From the UHGV virus genome UHGV-0159523: 32,971 nucleotides of DNA; one strand, written 5' to 3'. This DNA comes from a virus. Below the pieces are notes generated by a model. That model saw only the letters and a program-made list of their open reading frames with translations. It did not search any database and was not told where the DNA came from. Positions 3,448-32,806 of the stretch are shown one piece after another. Position 1 is the stretch's first letter. Each line of letters starts with the position of its first letter. A program made the translations under genes and the position numbers.

Positions 3448-5278
3448 ACCTAAATCTGGTGTACCCAACATCGTGATTAATATCAATGCCACTGGAACGT
3501 GTTTCCGTAACCCGCATACCTGGTGGCATATTCATAAATGAAACCTTGATCTCGCCATCAACTTTTGGCGCGATAGCTTTGTTAATCATAAAGGGATTCG
3601 AGCCTGTGGCATCGGAGGCGTTGTTTGCCTGAGCCGGATCCACCACCGGATAAGGAGTGTATCCCCGTGGCGGTATTCCCGTCCCATAAGCATCATAAGC
3701 ACCCGCGCCCCACTGCGCCGAGTTAATGGCATCGACCGTGTCACCGGAACTGTCGGTAAACCATTCAATAATCGGCTTCAGCTTATCCCACATATCCTGA
3801 AACCACTTAACAACCGGTCCCCAGTTATTGATCACCATCCCCAGCGGCGACCAGGCAAAAACCTTCTTCAGAAGTTCCCAACCTGCCTCAAAATAAGGAC
3901 CAATGGTTTCCCAGAGCTTCTTGAAATAAGGTCCGACAACATCCCAGTTAGTGATAATTAATCCCGCAGCCAGAGCAATCGCCGTCGCAATCATGCCAAT
4001 CGGCGTCATCGACATAATCCTGCTGACAATACTGATGGCACTGCCCACGCCCATCAATCCCAGTTTCAGAATCGCAAGACCGGCAGCAAGCCCGACGACG
4101 CCGCGAATAACCCGGGGATTTTCATCCGCAAACTTCGTGAATTTCTCCCCCAACTCCCCCAGCCATTGTGTGATATTTTTAGCGTCACCAGAAAATGCGC
4201 CGCCAATAGCCGCAAGGCCGTTAGTTGCGGTCCCTGTCATTGCCTCCCACAGGTTGGACAGCGTACCAAGCTGTGCCTGAACACGTTTATTCAGGCTGGC
4301 CTGTTTATTCATCTTCTGCTGGATCTGATCGTAGCCATCCTTTCCTTTATCGATTAGTGCATTGACCACCTGAAGGGTTTCGGCATCATCACCAAATATT
4401 GCCTTAAGTACACCTGTTCGCTTAACGTCGGTCAGTTTTCGCAGCTTTGCCAGTTGCCTGAACATGTTATCAAGACCGCCAAAACTTCCTTTGCCGTCAG
4501 TAAAATCGAGCTGTATCCCGAGTTTCTGGCGGGCCATAACTTTATTAACGTCCCTGATTTTCTTAACGCTTAATCCGGACTGGATAACTTTTCGCAGGGC
4601 ATTACCTGCCGACTCCCCGTTCATCCCCATCTGATCCATCATGACGCTGATGGGGGCAAGGCTCTGTGCAGCCTGAAGACCATCCTTGTTCACCATCTTC
4701 AGAACAGAACTGGTTTTAGTGAAGAAGGACAACATGTTGGTATCGTCAACGCCCAGATAAAACGCCTTCTGGATAGTGTCGAACAGCCCCATCATGTCTT
4801 CTGACGCCGTTCCGGTAGCATCCTGCATCTTTGCAGCAAACTCAGCAGCCGCTTCCGGTGTTTTTTTCAGTTGTACCGCAAGATAAGCTGTCGCTTTACC
4901 CACACCACCCAGAATGTTTTCTGCCGGGATCCCCTGACGCACCAGCATCTGCATCATGTTCTGGAAATCAGCCGTTGTACCAGGTAGCTGGTTACCCAGG
5001 CCAATAGCCAGTTTATTGATGTCCTGAAAGCTCTTTCCAACCTCGCCGTTCGCATCCATCATGGCGACTTTCAGCCCGGTGGCGGCGTTTTCCTGATCGG
5101 CATAAGATTTCAGGGAAAGCGTCAGACCCGCTGCCAGTCCGCCACCAAGCGCCAGCCCACCCTGTGACGCTTCTTCCGCCTGGCGTTTAAATCCCCGGAT
5201 TTTCTTTTGCATTTTCGACAGCGCGGGAGAAAGCCTGTCGACACCGGTGATCAACGCCTTAAGCTCAAATTCAGCCAT
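3446..5278 (-). CDS. Tail tape measure protein, 610 aa
   Basis: Long Ala/Gly/Leu-rich low-complexity protein with hydrophobic central segments, located directly downstream of tail assembly chaperone and frameshift ORFs. Confidence 0.8.
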   Translation of the reverse strand: MAEFELKALITGVDRLSPALSKMQKKIRGFKRQAEEASQGGLALGGGLAAGLTLSLKSYADQENAATGLKVAMMDANGEVGKSFQDINKLAIGLGNQLPGTTADFQNMMQMLVRQGIPAENILGGVGKATAYLAVQLKKTPEAAAEFAAKMQDATGTASEDMMGLFDTIQKAFYLGVDDTNMLSFFTKTSSVLKMVNKDGLQAAQSLAPISVMMDQMGMNGESAGNALRKVIQSGLSVKKIRDVNKVMARQKLGIQLDFTDGKGSFGGLDNMFRQLAKLRKLTDVKRTGVLKAIFGDDAETLQVVNALIDKGKDGYDQIQQKMNKQASLNKRVQAQLGTLSNLWEAMTGTATNGLAAIGGAFSGDAKNITQWLGELGEKFTKFADENPRVIRGVVGLAAGLAILKLGLMGVGSAISIVSRIMSMTPIGMIATAIALAAGLIITNWDVVGPYFKKLWETIGPYFEAGWELLKKVFAWSPLGMVINNWGPVVKWFQDMWDKLKPIIEWFTDSSGDTVDAINSAQWGAGAYDAYGTGIPPRGYTPYPVVDPAQANNASDATGSNPFMINKAIAPKVDGEIKVSFMNMPPGMRVTETRSSGIDINHDVGYTRFR

Positions 5279-15708: not shown

Positions 15709-15919
15709 GGGTGTTCCAAAATAAATAAACGCTAGCGAATTCTAGTAGCTTGAATTGAGTGTGATGGCCAGTACTGAACTTGAATCCGATTCGGTGTCAG
15801 CTTGGTTTTAGGCGATTACGCACAATTTGTTTTCCCTCATCAGACCAGGTTTTTAACCCATCATTATATATATACCCATCACCAAACTACGGCTTCCAGT
15901 AGGTTACTGTGTTTAGCAT

Positions 15920-15947
15920 GAGTATTTTGTGGTATAAGAAAATACTC
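15920..15947 (+). promoter_or_regulatory. Inverted repeat (9-bp arms gagtatttt / aaaatactc) bracketing an extended -10 (TGgTATAAG): candidate promoter/operator of the moron gene
   Basis: Perfect 9-bp arms separated by gtggtataag; TATAAG at 15933-15938 preceded by TGg; about 30 nt upstream of SD GGGAGA and ATG 15968. Confidence 0.4.
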
Positions 15948-15967
15948 AATTCTTGGGAGAAGAAAAC

Positions 15968-16249
15968 ATGCCAAAAATTCAATTTGATGCAAAAAGTGGT
16001 GAAATGAAGGTTGAGGAAGAAATTTCCAAGATCACCATTGATGATAAAGGCTTAGTTAAAGCTGAAGAGTCTGTAGTTAATGGAAATACCGTTAAGTACT
16101 TTGAGTATGAAAATGGTAGCCATATCACTATTACCCAAAAAAACGGATCCTCTGAGATTTCATCTCATAATATCCAGACAACAATAAGCGCTGACCCTGA
16201 AAAGCCTGGTTTTGTGACTATGACTTACAGAATGGGGTCAGGTAGCTAA
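15968..16249 (+). CDS. Moron: small hydrophilic protein of unknown function, 93 aa
   Basis: AT-rich island on the opposite strand between lysis and packaging genes; SD GGGAGA 7 nt upstream of ATG; own promoter-like and terminator-like elements. Confidence 0.5.
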   Translation: MPKIQFDAKSGEMKVEEEISKITIDDKGLVKAEESVVNGNTVKYFEYENGSHITITQKNGSSEISSHNIQTTISADPEKPGFVTMTYRMGSGS

Positions 16250-16278
16250 CTTTCATTTCAACAAGAGCGGAAAATCAA

Positions 16279-16312
16279 AGCGGCTCATATTGAGCTGCTT
16301 TTCATTATTTTC
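16279..16312 (+). terminator. Rho-independent terminator-like hairpin after moron gene
   Basis: agcggctca-tat-tgagctgct stem (one G-U) followed by tttcattattttct. Confidence 0.4.
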
Positions 16313-16519
16313 TGCATCCACACTTTCGCAATGGCCGCGATCATGCCCTTGAGACCATGTGTCAGGGGTATCTCGTGAATCCCTCATAACTAACCGGAAG
16401 CTGACTGGCTATCAGCCTAGAGCACCGGTGCGCTTCTTCCCGTTAACCCTCACCAGTGCGCTCTCAGCTTTTTACCTGAAACTGGCTACCAGCAACTTTG
16501 AGTATTCGGGGCAGCGTCA

Positions 16520-17713: not shown

Positions 17714-17994
17714 TAGTGCCTCAGATGATCAACCAGACGTGCAACGTTGCCTCTGACAGCCACCAGCACGGAAAGAAAAATAGTGTTCGCCACGATAATG
17801 GGCCATGAGGAATGGGGATAAATCCCACAGAGATAGGCCAACGGAACAGCACTGTATGTAACAGTAATCAGCCAGGCTAAACGTGAAACCCACGGACGAT
17901 GCCGCGAATCACCACGACGATAAAACATCAGAGTAATAACAACACAAGCACATAACAGCGCATTAATAGTTGCTGTCGGGTCATTTAGCTCCAC
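17713..17994 (-). CDS. Small membrane protein in lysis cassette (second holin/antiholin candidate), 93 aa
   Basis: Two to three hydrophobic helices; between holin and endolysin. Confidence 0.45.
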   Translation of the reverse strand: MELNDPTATINALLCACVVITLMFYRRGDSRHRPWVSRLAWLITVTYSAVPLAYLCGIYPHSSWPIIVANTIFLSVLVAVRGNVARLVDHLRH

Positions 17995-18367
17995 CTGAAC
18001 CTCCCCGGCGCGTTATGAGCGCCACCAGCGAGCCGATATCCTGATTATTCAGGAACGTCAGGATTTTAACGGCTAAAGCAGAGACGATTACGGCACCAAT
18101 AGCATCCAGAGGTTTATCACTGTATCCGGTCAAGTTTGCCAGCTTGGAGCCAACCAATCCAGAGCAAAGGATCCCAGCAATATATGACACGATAAAATAT
18201 GCCAGTCGGCGCGATGCACTCAGATCTGCTGCTGTTGCTATATAGAATACAGCCCCTGCAAATGCGCCAAAAACAACGCCGTAATCAGTTCCGGTCAGCA
18301 GTCCATAAATACTAGCGCCCGTTAGGGCTCCACCAGCTAACCCTGTGCCGGAAATCGGATCGGACAT
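17981..18367 (-). CDS. Holin-like membrane protein, 128 aa from ATG 18367
   Basis: Strong SD AGAGGTG 4 nt upstream of ATG at 18365-18367; Gly/Ala-rich TM helices; first gene of lysis cassette. The ORF track's upstream start at 18433 lacks an SD. Confidence 0.55.
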   Translation of the reverse strand: MSDPISGTGLAGGALTGASIYGLLTGTDYGVVFGAFAGAVFYIATAADLSASRRLAYFIVSYIAGILCSGLVGSKLANLTGYSDKPLDAIGAVIVSALAVKILTFLNNQDIGSLVALITRRGGSGGAK

Positions 18368-18415
18368 TAGCCACCTCTTATTGCAGTGAGTCCTCTCAGA
18401 AATAGAAATGAGAGG

Positions 18416-18442
18416 AATAAAAAAGGCCACCATTTGGCAGCC
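18416..18442 (-). terminator. Rho-independent terminator at end of AT-rich cassette (before holin)
   Basis: Minus strand ggctgcc-aaat-ggtggcc hairpin (with G-U pairs) followed by TTTTTTATT. Confidence 0.4.
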
Positions 18443-18475
18443 ATAGAATTGATGTAATTATAACTAATTCATTAA

Positions 18476-19282
18476 CTATTTCTTAATGATGCTATTTAAC
18501 ATTTCTAATGCAAAAAGCAACATGGAGCTAATAAAATACAATATAACCGCACTGGCAATCGCTCCAATTATAGCCTGAACACTCCAGTGAAAGTAATTTT
18601 TACCATTAATAACAAACTTAACACTAGGAAACAAAAAGTCGATAAGCTTAATTATTAATGGAATAGCAAAGCTCCATAAGTTCGAAAACAAAATAAAGAT
18701 ACAAATAAATGATAAAGCAAATGCACCATCGATTGATAGTTTTGGCGCCAGTTTTGAGGCTGTCCATAAGCTAAGCAAAAAGCCAACTGTCACACCTGAA
18801 ATCTGGATACTTAACATAGTCCAAGCTGTTCTAAAAAATCTAAATTTATTTTTGCACTTGTTAAGTAAATCCTGAATCGTAATCCATAACGAGTCAACCC
18901 ACTCATTATCTTCCGATGCTACAATCATTGTGCTGCTATTTGAATTCCTCTCATCAATTCGTAGCTCCATCCAAGATCCATTCATCCTGTTAGACTGTCG
19001 ACTTTGATAAGTTTCAATAGTAAAAATTATTTGATCAATCCTAGTGGCCTGTCTAAAGTATTTCACAAGCTCACCGATAGAATCAACTTTATACCCCTTA
19101 CCATCGAACAAAATAAAAAAAACACATTGAGCACAAACTTCCCTACTTTCCTTTTGAGCTTGCTCATTCATTTTAACGCAGCGTTCGACAATTGCCGTGC
19201 TTAAGCTAATCAAGCTATCTTCATTTATAGAAACACCTGAAATATTCTTGCTTCTGTAAAAATATGACACTTTCGATTCCAC
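18476..19282 (-). CDS. Moron: membrane protein with about 155-aa N-terminal soluble domain and three C-terminal TM helices, 268 aa (GTG start)
   Basis: Long ORF in strongly AT-rich DNA; hydrophobic segments near residues 160-185, 195-227, 240-265; no in-frame upstream ATG before a stop, so GTG at 19282. Confidence 0.55.
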   Translation of the reverse strand: MESKVSYFYRSKNISGVSINEDSLISLSTAIVERCVKMNEQAQKESREVCAQCVFFILFDGKGYKVDSIGELVKYFRQATRIDQIIFTIETYQSRQSNRMNGSWMELRIDERNSNSSTMIVASEDNEWVDSLWITIQDLLNKCKNKFRFFRTAWTMLSIQISGVTVGFLLSLWTASKLAPKLSIDGAFALSFICIFILFSNLWSFAIPLIIKLIDFLFPSVKFVINGKNYFHWSVQAIIGAIASAVILYFISSMLLFALEMLNSIIKK

Positions 19283-19447
19283 TCCGCACCAGTCTCGATT
19301 TGGCGCAGGTTAACATAACCACTTCATTGGTAGAAGAAAAGAACTCTTCTTGTCAGAAAGCTACTGTGATATCCCTAAACCTGCAGATGATACAGAACAA
19401 AATTTAAGCATCAATTGTAGGCGATTTTAAATTCACTTTACAGTTTA

Positions 19448-19465
19448 GGCTGCCAATTGGCAGCC
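19448..19465. repeat. Perfect 18-bp palindrome ggctgccaattggcagcc between the two cassette genes
   Basis: Exact reverse-complement symmetry read directly; 15 bp downstream of the 89-aa gene stop; its right half recurs in the cassette terminator at 18425-18442. Confidence 0.6.
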
Positions 19466-19479
19466 GATTGAAGCAGAAA

Positions 19480-19749
19480 TCAATGAGTGCTCATCGATGA
19501 ATTTTTTTCAGCGCCAATCTCACTCAAAAAAGCAAAACCTTTTGACGTTATCTCATTAGCAATCAATCCACCTTCGGCAGATTTGCTTCGTATAACATCG
19601 ATAAAACCTATATCAGCAAGATCTGAAATAGCAAAATTAACCTCTTTTGCTGAGAGATGAGGTAATGATGTAGCCTGAATTCTAGAATCCTTTGGCTGCA
19701 ATTCATTCACTCGACGTAGTATTTCAAGATGGATAGAGGTCAGTTTCAT
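19480..19749 (-). CDS. Moron: small protein with winged-helix-like C-terminus, 89 aa (candidate regulator)
   Basis: Perfect SD AGGAGA 5 nt before ATG; own extended -10 promoter; pattern DLADIGFIDVIRSKSAEGGLIANEITSKGFAFL resembles wHTH wings. Confidence 0.5.
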   Translation of the reverse strand: MKLTSIHLEILRRVNELQPKDSRIQATSLPHLSAKEVNFAISDLADIGFIDVIRSKSAEGGLIANEITSKGFAFLSEIGAEKNSSMSTH

Positions 19750-19785
19750 AATGTTCTCCTGTCTTTAATGTTGTTTTACAGAAAA

Positions 19786-19795
19786 CATTATAACA
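19786..19795 (-). promoter_or_regulatory. Extended -10 promoter element (TGtTATAAT) for the AT-rich cassette
   Basis: Minus-strand TGTTATAATG about 35 nt upstream of the 89-aa gene ATG, just downstream of the tR'-like terminator. Confidence 0.4.
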
Positions 19796-19830
19796 CATTG
19801 ATTTTGATGTAGATTGAATAGAAAAAAACC

Positions 19831-19856
19831 ATAAAAAAACCTCGCAATAGCGAGGT
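19831..19856 (-). terminator. tR'-like rho-independent terminator in the late leader downstream of Q
   Basis: Minus strand acctcgc-tatt-gcgaggt perfect 7-bp stem followed by TTTTTTAT and a second T-run. Confidence 0.5.
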
Positions 19857-19963
19857 CGTAAAAATTGTTCAACGATAGATACACAAGCCCCATCGTTGAG
19901 AAAATCTTATCCATATTTTTTGAGAAACACAAGTATTATGTCGTTATCTTCGGCGAAAATCGC

Positions 19964-20716
19964 TTATCTCGTCACCCTTCTCAATTGTGCTTCAGCGTAA
20001 GCTTCCTCCTGCCAGCACTTTGTAACCAGTTTATCAATGACATCTGCATATCCTTTGTACCACTGATAATCCGTCAGGTCTGGTACCAGCTTCTGGACAT
20101 GAAGCCGCGCCAGTGTGGTTGGTAAACGGCTAAACCGGTTTCCATTGCAACGCCCACAAATCTTATAAACAGGCGTGCCATGAAGCCGGGTCCTTTTTTC
20201 ATCCAGGACAATACCTTTACCCTTACACCCTCTGCACGCGGTGCTGACTTCTCCCTTACCATGGCAATGCTGACATAGTTCCTTCACCCACTCTTCCTTG
20301 ATAACAGATTCCCCGCTTCTGGAGTGTTTCACCACTTCGCGCAATACATTATGAAATCCAGTACCAGCACAATGCTCACAGCGAGCCTTACTTGCCGCAG
20401 ACCTGGAATAATCAGCAAAGGCAAAATTCACAAGGTAAGGGATGATCTGTAACCGGGTTTCTTCACTCAATTTGTTCAATGTCGGGTTATCCAGTGCCAT
20501 CGCGTAATTGAACAGACCTTCAATCGCAAACTGAGGATCCTGAACACCAACTTTTGCCAGGAATAAGGCAAACCCAAGCGGTGCTTTCGACTGCACCATC
20601 CCCTGCGCAGCCATCACATCCGTAATCGTTAAACCACCTGAGCCTGTCGCCGGTGCGTCATCGCTCAATTTTGGAGATTTTGGGGAGTAATATTTTGGTA
20701 AGGCTTCAAGGTTCAT
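19964..20716 (-). CDS. Late-gene antiterminator Q-like protein, 250 aa from ATG 20716
   Basis: Cys-rich zinc-binding motifs (CEHCAGTG, CQHCHGKG, CRGCKGKG, CGRCNG); position immediately upstream of late leader/terminator and lysis genes; SD GGAGA before ATG 20714-20716. Confidence 0.7.
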   Translation of the reverse strand: MNLEALPKYYSPKSPKLSDDAPATGSGGLTITDVMAAQGMVQSKAPLGFALFLAKVGVQDPQFAIEGLFNYAMALDNPTLNKLSEETRLQIIPYLVNFAFADYSRSAASKARCEHCAGTGFHNVLREVVKHSRSGESVIKEEWVKELCQHCHGKGEVSTACRGCKGKGIVLDEKRTRLHGTPVYKICGRCNGNRFSRLPTTLARLHVQKLVPDLTDYQWYKGYADVIDKLVTKCWQEEAYAEAQLRRVTR

Positions 20717-20729
20717 GCTCGTTCTCCAC

Positions 20730-21701
20730 TTACGCCAGCACGCCAATTGCCTGCGCACGATCGATAAAACGAAATATCAGCTCCAGCTGGGAGCCATACT
20801 TCTCTTCAAATGCCACGGTATCCGCATGCAGCTCGTCGTGATGCTTTCTGCACAAAGGCAACACAAAGAGGTCATGCGCTTTTGTACCCATTCCACCCTG
20901 ACCGTGACCTATCAGGTGGTGGGGATCATCAGCAGGCTTTCCACAACATGCACACGGCTGTGTCTTAACCCAGCGGCGACGTTTTGGGCGTAACATAAAA
21001 GACTCCGGCGACTCCGGATCCACTTTCAGCGCCAGCACCTTTTTCGCCTTATCATGGATGATGCTGGTGGCAGGAATCGAAGGCACAAGGTCACTTTCCC
21101 GGGTGACAGACGGCACAACAGGCTTCGGTAATCTCAGTGCCTTACGGGCTGCACTTTCCGGTAAGGCATCCGCCAGGTCATTACGAATCAGCCACCAGCA
21201 CAGTTCCGGCATTGTCACAACGTGACTGTCATCAAAACCGAGATCCCGACGCACAACAGACAACACCCAGCGGGCACAGTTATCCGTTGCCATTGATTCC
21301 AGCCGTTCCGTGAACTGATCGCGCAGCTGGTTATCGCAGTGCCAGCACAGACGGATCGCGCCCGGCGCGTGTCGCATTGTGGTCATGTTCTCGCTGTGCC
21401 AGTCGGAATGAGGCCACTGACAGCCCTTTTCACGAAGTAACCAGCTTTCAAGACATTCCACGCCACCAGCACGACGGATCACTGCCTCATTGCAGAACAC
21501 GGCCCGAACGGCAGGATCATCCGCCAGCGGTTGTGATGCCGCGGGAACGGCACCACTGGCGAAAGATGAATAACGTTCCGGCTCAGGCTCCAGCAGGACA
21601 CGCCCCTGCATAAACAGGGGCATCAGCTCTGAACCGGGTCTGAACAATACGATCCCCATACGCGGGGCTATTTCAGTGGTCAGTAGTGCTCTCACGGTCA
21701 C
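20730..21701 (-). CDS. DUF968-family phage protein, 323 aa
   Basis: C-terminal Cys/His-rich segment CACCGKPADDPHHLIGHGQGG...CRKHHDELH; common lambdoid early-region gene. Confidence 0.55.
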   Translation of the reverse strand: MTVRALLTTEIAPRMGIVLFRPGSELMPLFMQGRVLLEPEPERYSSFASGAVPAASQPLADDPAVRAVFCNEAVIRRAGGVECLESWLLREKGCQWPHSDWHSENMTTMRHAPGAIRLCWHCDNQLRDQFTERLESMATDNCARWVLSVVRRDLGFDDSHVVTMPELCWWLIRNDLADALPESAARKALRLPKPVVPSVTRESDLVPSIPATSIIHDKAKKVLALKVDPESPESFMLRPKRRRWVKTQPCACCGKPADDPHHLIGHGQGGMGTKAHDLFVLPLCRKHHDELHADTVAFEEKYGSQLELIFRFIDRAQAIGVLA

Positions 21702-31326: not shown

Positions 31327-31676
31327 TGGAGCCATACAGCCTCACACTCGATGAGGCCTGTCATTTTCTCAAGATATCCAGACCGACTGCCATTAACTGG
31401 ATACGCACAGGGCGTCTTCAGGCAACACGCAAAGATCCCACTAAGAATAAATCTCCTTACCTCACAACACGACAAGCCTGCATTGCGGCTCTTCAGTCTC
31501 CGCTGCATACTGTCCAGGTGAGCGCGGGTGATGGCATAACAGAGGAAAGAAAATGTCACTCTTCCGCAGAGGTGAAATATGGTACGCCAGTTTCACATTG
31601 CCGAACGGTAAAAGATTTAAACAGTCTCTTGGAACAAAGGACAAAAGGCAGGCGACAGAACTCCATGACAAGCTAA
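31326..31676 (+). CDS. xis: Excisionase (AlpA/MerR-type HTH), 116 aa
   Basis: SD AGAGGTG; N-terminal [35 protein letters not shown]-binding motif; immediately upstream of and overlapping int. Confidence 0.7.
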
Positions 31677-32716
31677 AGGCTGAAGCATGGCGGGTCAGCA
31701 AACTTGGTGAAATACCTGATATAACGTTCGAGGAAGCGTGTGTCAGGTGGCTTGAAGAGAAAGCACATAAAAAATCACTGGACGATGACAAAAGCCGGAT
31801 CGGATTCTGGCTTCAACATTTCGCAGGAATGCAACTAAGAGACATTACTGAATCAAAAATTTATTCAGCAATGCAGAAAATGACGAACCGGCGTCATGAG
31901 GAAAACTGGAAACTCAGGGCAGAAGCATGCAGAAAAAAAGGGAAACCTGTTCCAGAATACACGCCAAAACCAGCGTCCGTTGCAACGAAGGCTACGCATC
32001 TTTCATTTATAAAGGCCCTACTAAGAGCCGCAGAGCGTGAATGGAAAATGCTGGATAAGGCACCAATTATTAAAGTGCCCCAATCAAAGAATAAACGGAT
32101 CCGCTGGCTGGAGCCCCATGAAGCACAAAGGCTGATTGATGAATGTCCGGAACCATTAAAGTCTGTTGTTGAATTTGCACTGGCAACAGGCCTAAGACGC
32201 TCGAACATCATCAACCTTGAATGGCAACAAATAGATATGCAGCGCCGGGTGGCATGGATAAACCCGGAAGAGAGTAAATCAAACCGCGCAATTGGCGTTG
32301 CGCTGAATGATACTGCATGTCGCGTATTGAAAAAACAAATCGGGAATCATCACCGTTGGGTATTTGTGTACAAGGAAAGCTGTACCAAACCAGACGGAAC
32401 GAAAGCGCCAACAGTCAGGAAGATGCGGTATGACGCAAACACAGCCTGGAAAGCGGCGCTGAGACGGGCTGGTATTGATGATTTTAGATTTCACGACTTG
32501 AGACACACCTGGGCAAGTTGGCTGGTTCAAGCCGGAGTCCCGTTGTCAGTGTTACAGGAAATGGGAGGCTGGGAGTCTATCGAAATGGTTCGTCGATATG
32601 CTCACCTTGCACCTAATCACCTTACCGAACACGCACGGCAAATAGACTCGATCCTAAACCCATCGGTCCCAAATTTGTCCCAGTCAAAAAATAAGGAAGG
32701 TACTAATGATGTGTAA
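31553..32716 (+). CDS. int: Tyrosine integrase (phage-type site-specific recombinase), 387 aa
   Basis: N-terminal [21 protein letters not shown] typical of enterobacterial phage integrases; catalytic HDLRHTW box and RRYAHL tyrosine motif; ends 15 bp from the tRNA 3' end. Confidence 0.9.
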
Positions 32717-32730
32717 CTTATTGATTTAAA

Positions 32731-32806
32731 TGGTGCCGATAATAGGAGTCGAACCTACGACCTTCGCATTACGAATGCGCTGCTCTACCAACTGAGCTAT
32801 ATCGGC
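32731..32806 (-). tRNA. thrW: tRNA-Thr (anticodon CGU), thrW-type; prophage attachment site at its 3' end
   Basis: Reverse complement folds as a 76-nt tRNA ending in CCA with anticodon loop TT-CGT-AA; sequence matches E. coli tRNA-Thr(CGU) as I recall it. Confidence 0.9.

Follow-up and report, generated by a model that had tools for sequence, protein, structure and literature searches.

UHGV virus genome UHGV-0159523, represented by a stretch of 32,971 nucleotides (the window hereafter), carries an AT-rich cargo block on the minus strand at 18401-19829. The block contains two genes, one for an 89-amino-acid (aa) minimal winged-helix protein and the other for a 264-aa membrane protein, and lies between the Q antiterminator with its tR'-like terminator and the holin genes. 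An earlier note, made from the sequence alone, had read this cassette as one independently transcribed module in which a small DNA-binding-like partner accompanies a membrane effector, an architecture that would fit abortive infection or superinfection exclusion. Sequence comparison across prophages, phages and bacterial chromosomes makes it highly probable that the cassette instead consists of two unrelated accessory genes served by one promoter and one terminator, and is not a paired system.

The Cargo Block and Its Slot

All genes of the Q-to-lysis region are on the minus strand, in the order Q antiterminator, tR'-like terminator, AT-rich block, holins, GH19 endolysin and Rz/Rz1. The AT-rich island seen in the earlier note was confirmed, with 34-37% GC in the block versus 51% elsewhere (0.343 for the 264-aa gene, 0.374 for the 89-aa gene and 0.513 for the remaining window); in the GC profile, values of 0.30-0.39 extend across ~18300-19950, with ~0.50 on either side. 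Homology to prophages carrying other cargo is broken at 18400 and at 19830/19879, which marks the block as a discrete insert. Among the loci fetched for comparison (numbered with an L), L002 has the same Q and holin backbone with an unrelated 85-aa gene in the slot, and homology with it picks up again at 18400, the downstream edge of the block. L003 has a Q of 95% similarity, after which come two hypothetical genes, a DNA methyltransferase and another lysis cassette, and homology with this locus picks up again at 19830, the upstream edge. The claim that this site is a cargo hotspot is supported by these two loci, and two properties of a moron in the sense of the lambdoid moron concept of Juhala and Hendrix, i.e., absence or replacement in relatives that share the flanking genes and a deviant base composition (0.34-0.37 versus 0.51 GC), were both observed.

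Of 5426 complete Escherichia coli genomes, 41 contain the 1.5-kb block with at least 99.4% identity. Its annotation is in each case a pair of hypothetical proteins, and the two genes are intact side by side in most of these genomes. Megablast and tblastn searches of 50,697 phage genomes gave no match to the cassette or to the 264-aa protein.

The Small Winged-Helix Gene

The 89-aa gene occupies 19480..19749 on the minus strand, and a Shine-Dalgarno sequence, AGGAG, can be read at 19756..19760 on the same strand, six bases ahead of the ATG at 19749. The AlphaFold2 (AF2) model of its product has a mean predicted local distance difference test score (pLDDT) of 82 and consists of helix 1, a long recognition-type helix, a beta-wing and a C-terminal helix. 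When this model was compared with PDB structures by Foldseek, MarR, PadR and HxlR family members were matched with a probability of 1.0 and a template-modelling score of ~0.65. Model and structure search thus agree on a predicted MarR/PadR-like winged-helix fold with a degenerate second helix, in line with the winged-helix-like protein proposed earlier.

At the sequence level, Pfam hits stayed under their thresholds (DUF2513 with 22.1 bits versus 29.6, E 2e-4; HTH_45 with 14.4 versus 25.5), the NCBIfam hit to Lrs14 had an E-value of 0.11 and was also below the curated threshold, and the PHROG to which the protein belongs, 32916, has no assigned function. A proline-containing loop replaces the second helix of the helix-turn-helix, and the predicted recognition helix, AKEVNFAISDLADI, is acidic and hydrophobic with few basic residues in a protein with an isoelectric point (pI) of 6.3; judging from the model, DNA binding is possible but not assured. 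The ratio of nonsynonymous to synonymous substitution rates (dN/dS) of the gene is 0.21, indicating purifying selection.

Relatives of the 89-aa protein were detected by profile search only in Enterobacteriaceae, with 54-58% identity in Citrobacter and 35-45% in Klebsiella, and all of them are 79 aa long. The stretch from Q to the holin contains no gene other than theirs in two Klebsiella phages and at seven places in Citrobacter-type prophages, several of which come from named Citrobacter assemblies. The flanking genes at these solitary loci belong to several Q families (Phage_antiter_Q and an annotated DUF1133 Q-like protein, versus PF03589 in the window) and to several holin families (Phage_holin_2_1/2_3, Phage_holin_3_1 and Phage_holin_8), and no membrane partner was present beside the small gene at any of the examined Klebsiella and Citrobacter-type places. 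The Citrobacter units terminate in GGCTGCCATTTGGyGGCC followed by a T-run, which is the hairpin that closes the window cassette after the 264-aa gene; the Klebsiella phages have a terminator that differs from it. The 89-aa protein might be a separate small winged-helix regulator or a protein-binding adaptor.

The 264-aa Membrane Protein and Its Family

The longest open reading frame of the membrane protein gene, 19282..18476, encodes 268 aa, the length given in the earlier note. Homologues with 39-52% identity align from a GTG at 19270 with an MxxF/YxR motif, and RefSeq annotates the same start; translation most likely begins at this codon, giving a gene at 18476..19270 on the minus strand and a product of 264 aa. 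The soluble N-terminal domain and the three transmembrane helices that had been described were found again, with the length revised. By hydropathy, hydrophobic segments lie at ~150-171, 183-207 and 230-258, behind a soluble domain of ~145 aa, and AF2 folds residues 8-144 into an alpha+beta domain with a pLDDT of 88-91. The protein lacks a signal peptide and has five K/R residues just ahead of the first transmembrane helix, so the N-terminal domain should be cytoplasmic.

A profile search of 1.84 billion representatives recovered 230 clusters of this family, including 127 at an E-value of 1e-30 or better; nearly all are 255-270 aa long and match over the full length, showing a conserved architecture. 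Near-invariant residues are D7, R54, D56 and G59 in the soluble domain and Q156, F188, N197, W199, P215 and F219 in the membrane part, and each of the three helices has one conserved amide residue (Q156, N197 and Q232). With a dN/dS of ~0.17, the gene is under purifying selection as well.

No family in Pfam was matched by the 264-aa protein or by any of 88 diverse family members, no match was found in NCBIfam or PADLOC, and sequence searches of the PDB with single sequences, the 88 members and the profile were also negative. The protein is included in PHROG 30208, which has no known function. A homology to lysis, holin or antiholin functions, which the earlier note had asked about, did not appear among Pfam or PHROG families, and a search of PADLOC-DB 2.0 at E-values up to 1 for a known defence system gave no match for either cassette protein. 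The N-terminal domain resembles TBP-like, AdoMetDC-like, KA1 and START-like alpha+beta sandwiches with Z-scores below 8, identities of 4-15% and no sequence signal; the likeness to TBP, KA1 and START is one of fold class alone and is not evidence of homology or function. The Gifsy protein GiPD474 is an unrelated ATPase. Literature searches covering DUF2513, prophage defence and the RefSeq accession brought up no paper on either cassette protein. The earlier remark that neither protein could be recognised as a member of a characterised family agrees with these results, as Pfam, NCBIfam, PADLOC and PHROG gave no match above threshold or with a known function, and both protein families are undescribed.

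In enterobacterial prophages, relatives with 52-87% identity are encoded directly upstream of the holin and downstream of an N6_N4 DNA methyltransferase gene (L004-6, L008-9 and L043-48); in L007, only the 3' end of the methyltransferase gene is left (~2330-2430). The identities of the methyltransferase and the membrane protein are decoupled, being 93% and 52%, respectively, between L008 and L047. Homology between the window and L004 starts ~55 nucleotides (nt) upstream of the GTG and continues through the common terminator. The gene before the methyltransferase is usually either a winged-helix-like one of 66-73 aa or an unrelated one of 200-226 aa. The 66-73-aa proteins upstream in L007 and L008 were examined as possible relatives of the 89-aa protein and are unrelated to it; they belong to the methyltransferase module.

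The chromosomes of environmental bacteria (Methylobacter, Gallionella, Thiobacillus, Methyloversatilis, Nitrospira and Bacteroidota) carry genes for more distant relatives, with 31-41% identity, as lone genes, and no recurrent adjacent partner was found across 13 chromosomal loci. Where neighbours were checked protein by protein, the adjacent genes with a family match are housekeeping genes, which adjoin the family gene in three of five loci (sdhAB; recG and ubiC; glycogen phosphorylase). In three metagenomic loci (L010-12), the family gene lies beside GmrSD/HEPN and TumE, a transposase, or SocA-Panacea genes. Compared with its flanks, it is AT-rich in 17 of 18 loci. The sole recurring neighbour is a large ABC-type ATPase gene (573-702 aa), adjacent or one small open reading frame away within ~0.6 kb at three chromosomal loci (L014, L017 and L018), whose product is probably a housekeeping ABC-F protein and not a partner.

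Not all copies of the membrane gene are intact. The copy in one E. coli genome (L036) carries an 11-bp frameshifting deletion at a site corresponding to ~18976 of the window, and in a Hafnia/Citrobacter lineage (L043-46, ~3980-3995) a TAA nonsense codon at position 33 leads to the 231-aa form that underlies PHROG 30208. The disruption among related prophages that the earlier note had considered is thus confined to a minority of copies, and overall both genes are under purifying selection.

Promoter, Palindrome and Terminator

The putative promoter of the small gene (19787..19815, minus strand), as read from the sequence, is an extended -10 element, TGTTATAAT, at 19795-19787 within a conserved block. 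It was missed by a -35/-10 scanner for lack of a -35 element. The block, CAATCTACrTCAAAATCAATrTGTTATAAT, shares 29 of 31 bases with Citrobacter prophages in which the small protein reaches just 54-58% identity, and is better conserved than the coding sequence; in Klebsiella phages, another extended -10 element, TGGTAAAAT, is found at the equivalent position. The promoter and Shine-Dalgarno sequence predicted earlier are thus present as TGTTATAAT and AGGAG, and a putative promoter and terminator of its own are suggested for the unit by an extended -10 element conserved in the Citrobacter, Klebsiella and E. coli versions together with a canonical intrinsic terminator, both recognised by sequence only. 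An inverted repeat over the -10 element and the start codon (I10) was judged to be due to chance and is not conserved in Citrobacter.

The intrinsic terminator of the cassette (18416..18442, minus strand) separates it from the holin genes and is formed by the hairpin GGCUGCCAAAUGGUGGCC followed by UUUUUUAUU; the hairpin spans 18442-18425, after which TTTTTTATT can be read. The same hairpin stands after a 276-aa homologue of the membrane protein in L004 and, in Citrobacter, after the lone genes of 79 aa. In its general form, GGCTGCCAwwTGGyGGCC plus a T-run, it lies at 18425-18442 in the window, at ~4277-4294 in L028 and L032, and at ~5866-5883 in L004, and it is located just upstream of the holin after differing cargo, both in prophages of E. 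coli and Citrobacter and in L004, an unassigned prophage contig from an enterobacterium. The recurring hairpin has the look of a recombination junction common to the slot.

Between the two genes lies a perfect 18-bp palindrome, GGCTGCCAATTGGCAGCC, which had been noticed before and is placed here, with corrected coordinates, at 19448-19465. As RNA it would form a 7-bp hairpin with no U-tract, unlike the terminal hairpin, which has one, and for this reason it is not a canonical terminator. Elsewhere in the window, only the cassette terminator comes close to it, with 15 of 18 bases in common, in agreement with the earlier remark that the terminator hairpin reuses the right half of the palindrome; two matches were obtained in none of 100 shuffles. 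The left arm of the palindrome is also the left arm of the terminator hairpin that follows the solitary small gene in Citrobacter, and relative to the terminator, the palindrome copy has two G·U pairs turned into Watson-Crick pairs (TGGTGGCC to TGGCAGCC). The palindrome, taken earlier for a possible operator, is better explained on these sequence grounds as a copy of the ancestral terminator.

The spacer between the two genes (19271..19447, minus strand) is 177 nt long and gave no match in any other fetched locus; its final ~55 nt, from ~19330, belong to the membrane-gene module. It contains a weak promoter-like site, TTGATG-16-TATCAT, at 19414-19387 with a score of 9/12, and such sites are not enriched over shuffles.

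A Proposed Stacking of Two Morons

Whether the two genes form a system can be examined by their co-occurrence in diverged lineages. In the loci examined outside the E. coli block, relatives of the 89-aa protein are without exception encoded by solitary genes, and no homologue of the 264-aa protein is encoded next to an 89-aa relative; the pair is confined to this one block, which is near-clonal. Because the copies share a recent common descent, co-occurrence within the block provides no independent evidence of coupling. The proposal that a small partner and a membrane effector make up one module was therefore not borne out, as in all other lineages examined either gene is found on its own.

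As an overall explanation, two independent morons may have been stacked in the Q-to-holin slot of an e14/P27-like lambdoid prophage and may now form one transcription unit. We consider this history, read from the sequence, to have about an even chance of being correct as a whole, and its core, i.e., the architecture and the independence of the two genes, to be very probable. The ancestral unit would have been a single-gene moron made of the extended -10 promoter, the small winged-helix gene and the terminator GGCTGCCAwwTGGyGGCC plus T-run. In the E. coli lineage, the 264-aa gene, together with ~55 nt of its own leader, would have come to lie between the small gene and this terminator, and a copy of the hairpin, with perfect pairing and no T-run, would have been left behind as the palindrome.

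Expression of such a unit can be outlined in the same conditional way. In a lysogen, transcripts from pR' would end at tR', insulating the cassette, and the moron promoter, if constitutive, would produce a bicistronic mRNA for both genes. The intergenic hairpin, having no U-tract, would not terminate transcription between the genes; it could stabilise the part of the mRNA that lies upstream of it, to the benefit of the small protein. Ahead of the holin, transcription would be halted by the terminal hairpin. Upon induction, Q-modified RNA polymerase would pass all terminators, so that both genes would also be expressed late.

Possible Functions of the Membrane Protein

With its N terminus in the cytoplasm, the 264-aa protein could use the TBP/KA1/START-like domain to sense a ligand or a protein. 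It would act alone, most plausibly as a phage-exclusion or abortive-infection factor at the membrane; based on the models and on context, we propose this role tentatively, as a possibility with less than an even chance. A wider version of the idea, which appears doubtful at present, is that the protein founds a family of single-gene membrane-acting anti-phage factors, in which the TBP/KA1-like domain senses infection and the three-helix Q/N domain gates or disrupts the membrane, and that this lone AT-rich gene spreads into the chromosomes of several phyla and into the Q-to-holin slot, the 89-aa protein being a separate prophage regulator.

Several observations weigh against these proposals or against the independence of the two genes. 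The transmembrane part of the AF2 model, three long helices, has low confidence (pLDDT ~50). There is no general enrichment of defence genes near the chromosomal homologues, with only scattered PADLOC matches among 97 neighbours, and IMG/VR viral contigs contained no distant family member, only the E. coli cassette and one 77% variant. In all enterobacterial phage contexts, the membrane gene is the last one before the holin, and it usually comes after a methyltransferase gene, which may conceal a functional link. Finally, the joint retention of both genes in most of the 41 genomes is expected from descent, and a secondary functional interaction between them could exist nonetheless.

The main rival for the function is that the 264-aa protein is a factor of host physiology that has nothing to do with phages, such as one for membrane homeostasis, the sensing of stress or the handling of small molecules, and that enterobacterial prophages took it up as lysogenic-conversion cargo. 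The lone distant homologues in Proteobacteria, Nitrospira and Bacteroidota, some of them beside housekeeping genes, and the absence of any distant homologue from viral contigs are consistent with such an origin. A sparse and patchy distribution (~230 clusters in 1.8 billion representatives) does not fit it well; moreover, the AT-richness in 17 of 18 loci indicates that the gene was horizontally acquired and is not core, some copies lie beside toxin-antitoxin, GmrSD or transposase genes, and pseudogenisation has occurred repeatedly. Patchiness, AT-richness, mobile neighbours and pseudogenisation are typical of accessory and conflict genes and are not exclusive to them. On balance, a role in host physiology seems rather unlikely.

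A genuine two-gene system, in which the 89-aa protein is the regulator, antitoxin or sensor of a 264-aa effector, perhaps by binding the palindrome, and which serves abortive infection or superinfection exclusion, was judged quite improbable. In its favour are the adjacency of the genes on one strand, their probable joint transcription between a single promoter and a single terminator, their joint retention in 41 genomes, the MarR-like fold of the small protein and the perfect palindrome that separates the genes. Against it, either gene is found without the other in all other sampled lineages, the 41 genomes represent one near-clonal block whose co-occurrence carries no independent weight, and the palindrome appears to come from the moron terminator hairpin. 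The lone chromosomal copies imply that the membrane protein needs no antitoxin, the recognition helix AKEVNFAISDLADI is acidic and hydrophobic in a protein of pI 6.3, and PADLOC gave no match.

The least probable reading, that the 264-aa protein is a lysis accessory (an antiholin, a lysis-timing or a lysis-inhibition factor on the late transcript ahead of the holins), can draw on its predicted inner-membrane location, on its being encoded by the last gene before the holin in every phage context and on the expectation that Q-modified polymerase would co-transcribe it with the holins, and is made very unlikely by the intrinsic terminator between them, the differing holin families (Phage_holin_8 with 3_7 in the window, Phage_holin_2_1 in L007), a Q/holin backbone that works without the membrane gene in L002, the absence of the protein by tblastn from all 50,697 deposited phage genomes, 13 chromosomal homologues with no lysis genes nearby, and the lack of a match to any holin or antiholin family or of an obligatory linkage to one lysis cassette.

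Relation to Known Systems and Significance

Lambdoid phages carry morons in the Q-to-S slot, where the cargo includes stx in Shiga toxin (Stx) phages. Like these, each gene discussed here is an extra gene of deviant GC content in a unit with an apparent promoter and terminator of its own, inserted between genes that flank other cargo in relatives, and, judging from the sequence, could be expressed in the repressed prophage as well as by read-through of Q-modified polymerase. The case differs in that two unrelated morons are nested, having one promoter and one terminator in common, and in that their uncharacterised products include no toxin and no known conversion factor. Morons in the Q-to-S slot are a well-known kind of element, and a pseudo-operon of two morons built through a common terminator hairpin is a neat but unsurprising variant.

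P22 SieA, HK97 gp15, T4 Imm and lambda RexB are small-to-medium inner-membrane exclusion or abortive-infection proteins, and the prophage proteins among them are accessory and expressed in the lysogen. The 264-aa protein resembles them, going by their general descriptions, as a prophage-accessory inner-membrane protein. No sequence, profile or fold similarity to them turned up in the family searches, and the 264-aa protein has a 145-aa cytoplasmic alpha+beta domain and cross-phylum relatives in non-phage contexts. The small protein, as modelled, shares helix 1, the recognition helix, the beta-wing and the C-terminal helix with MarR/PadR/HxlR regulators and DUF2513. Unlike MarR-type regulators, it is only 79-89 aa long, lacks the MarR dimerisation helices, and has a proline loop in place of the second helix and an acidic/hydrophobic recognition helix.

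The Q-to-holin slot bears medically important cargo such as Shiga toxin, and an inventory of the slot should help to predict lysogen phenotypes. The present locus illustrates how cargo can build up, since a second gene nested in an existing moron by re-use of the terminator hairpin yields a pseudo-operon that mimics a two-gene system. Assemblies of E. coli, Citrobacter and Klebsiella that contain the two families, which are outside Pfam, NCBIfam and PADLOC, number in the thousands, and avian-pathogenic and enterotoxigenic strains of E. coli are among them. Both families are reasonable and inexpensive candidates for phage-defence screening, and the analysis itself demonstrates no new mechanism.

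Flanking Genes and Other Features of the Window

Upstream of the block, the Q antiterminator gene (20758..19964, minus strand) matches PF03589 (Pfam Antiterm) with an E-value of 8e-53. Directly downstream of it, the tR'-like intrinsic terminator at 19857-19838 (minus strand) forms the upstream edge of the cargo slot, with an 8-bp GC-rich stem and a U-run, a fold energy of -14 kcal/mol and a z-score of -5.1. In some E. coli genomes (L037 and L042, 1-4000), the Q region upstream of the cassette is swapped for unrelated genes (DUF2303 and YfdP), and the swapped region includes ~1.4 kb with no called gene; the cassette and the lysis genes remain there in an apparently decayed prophage.

On the other side, outside the cassette, the first holin gene (Phage_holin_8; 17981..18367, minus strand; Pfam E-value 1.5e-34, also annotated in RefSeq) forms the downstream edge of the slot and overlaps the second holin gene, Phage_holin_3_7. 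A small hairpin, cctctca-N10-tgagagg, lies at 18393-18416 between the cassette terminator and the Shine-Dalgarno site of the holin. It is also present 5' of the same holin in L002, L004 and the Klebsiella phage L027, and may regulate holin translation.

A second AT-rich patch was observed at 15750-16350 (GC 0.35-0.40), between an HNH endonuclease gene and Rz1. An open reading frame on the plus strand at 15953..16249, a 93-98-aa hypothetical gene opposite to the late operon, looks like another moron. At the right end of the window (31553-32806), an integrase-sized open reading frame of 387 aa adjoins a tRNA-Thr(CGT) gene, which is probably the prophage attachment site.

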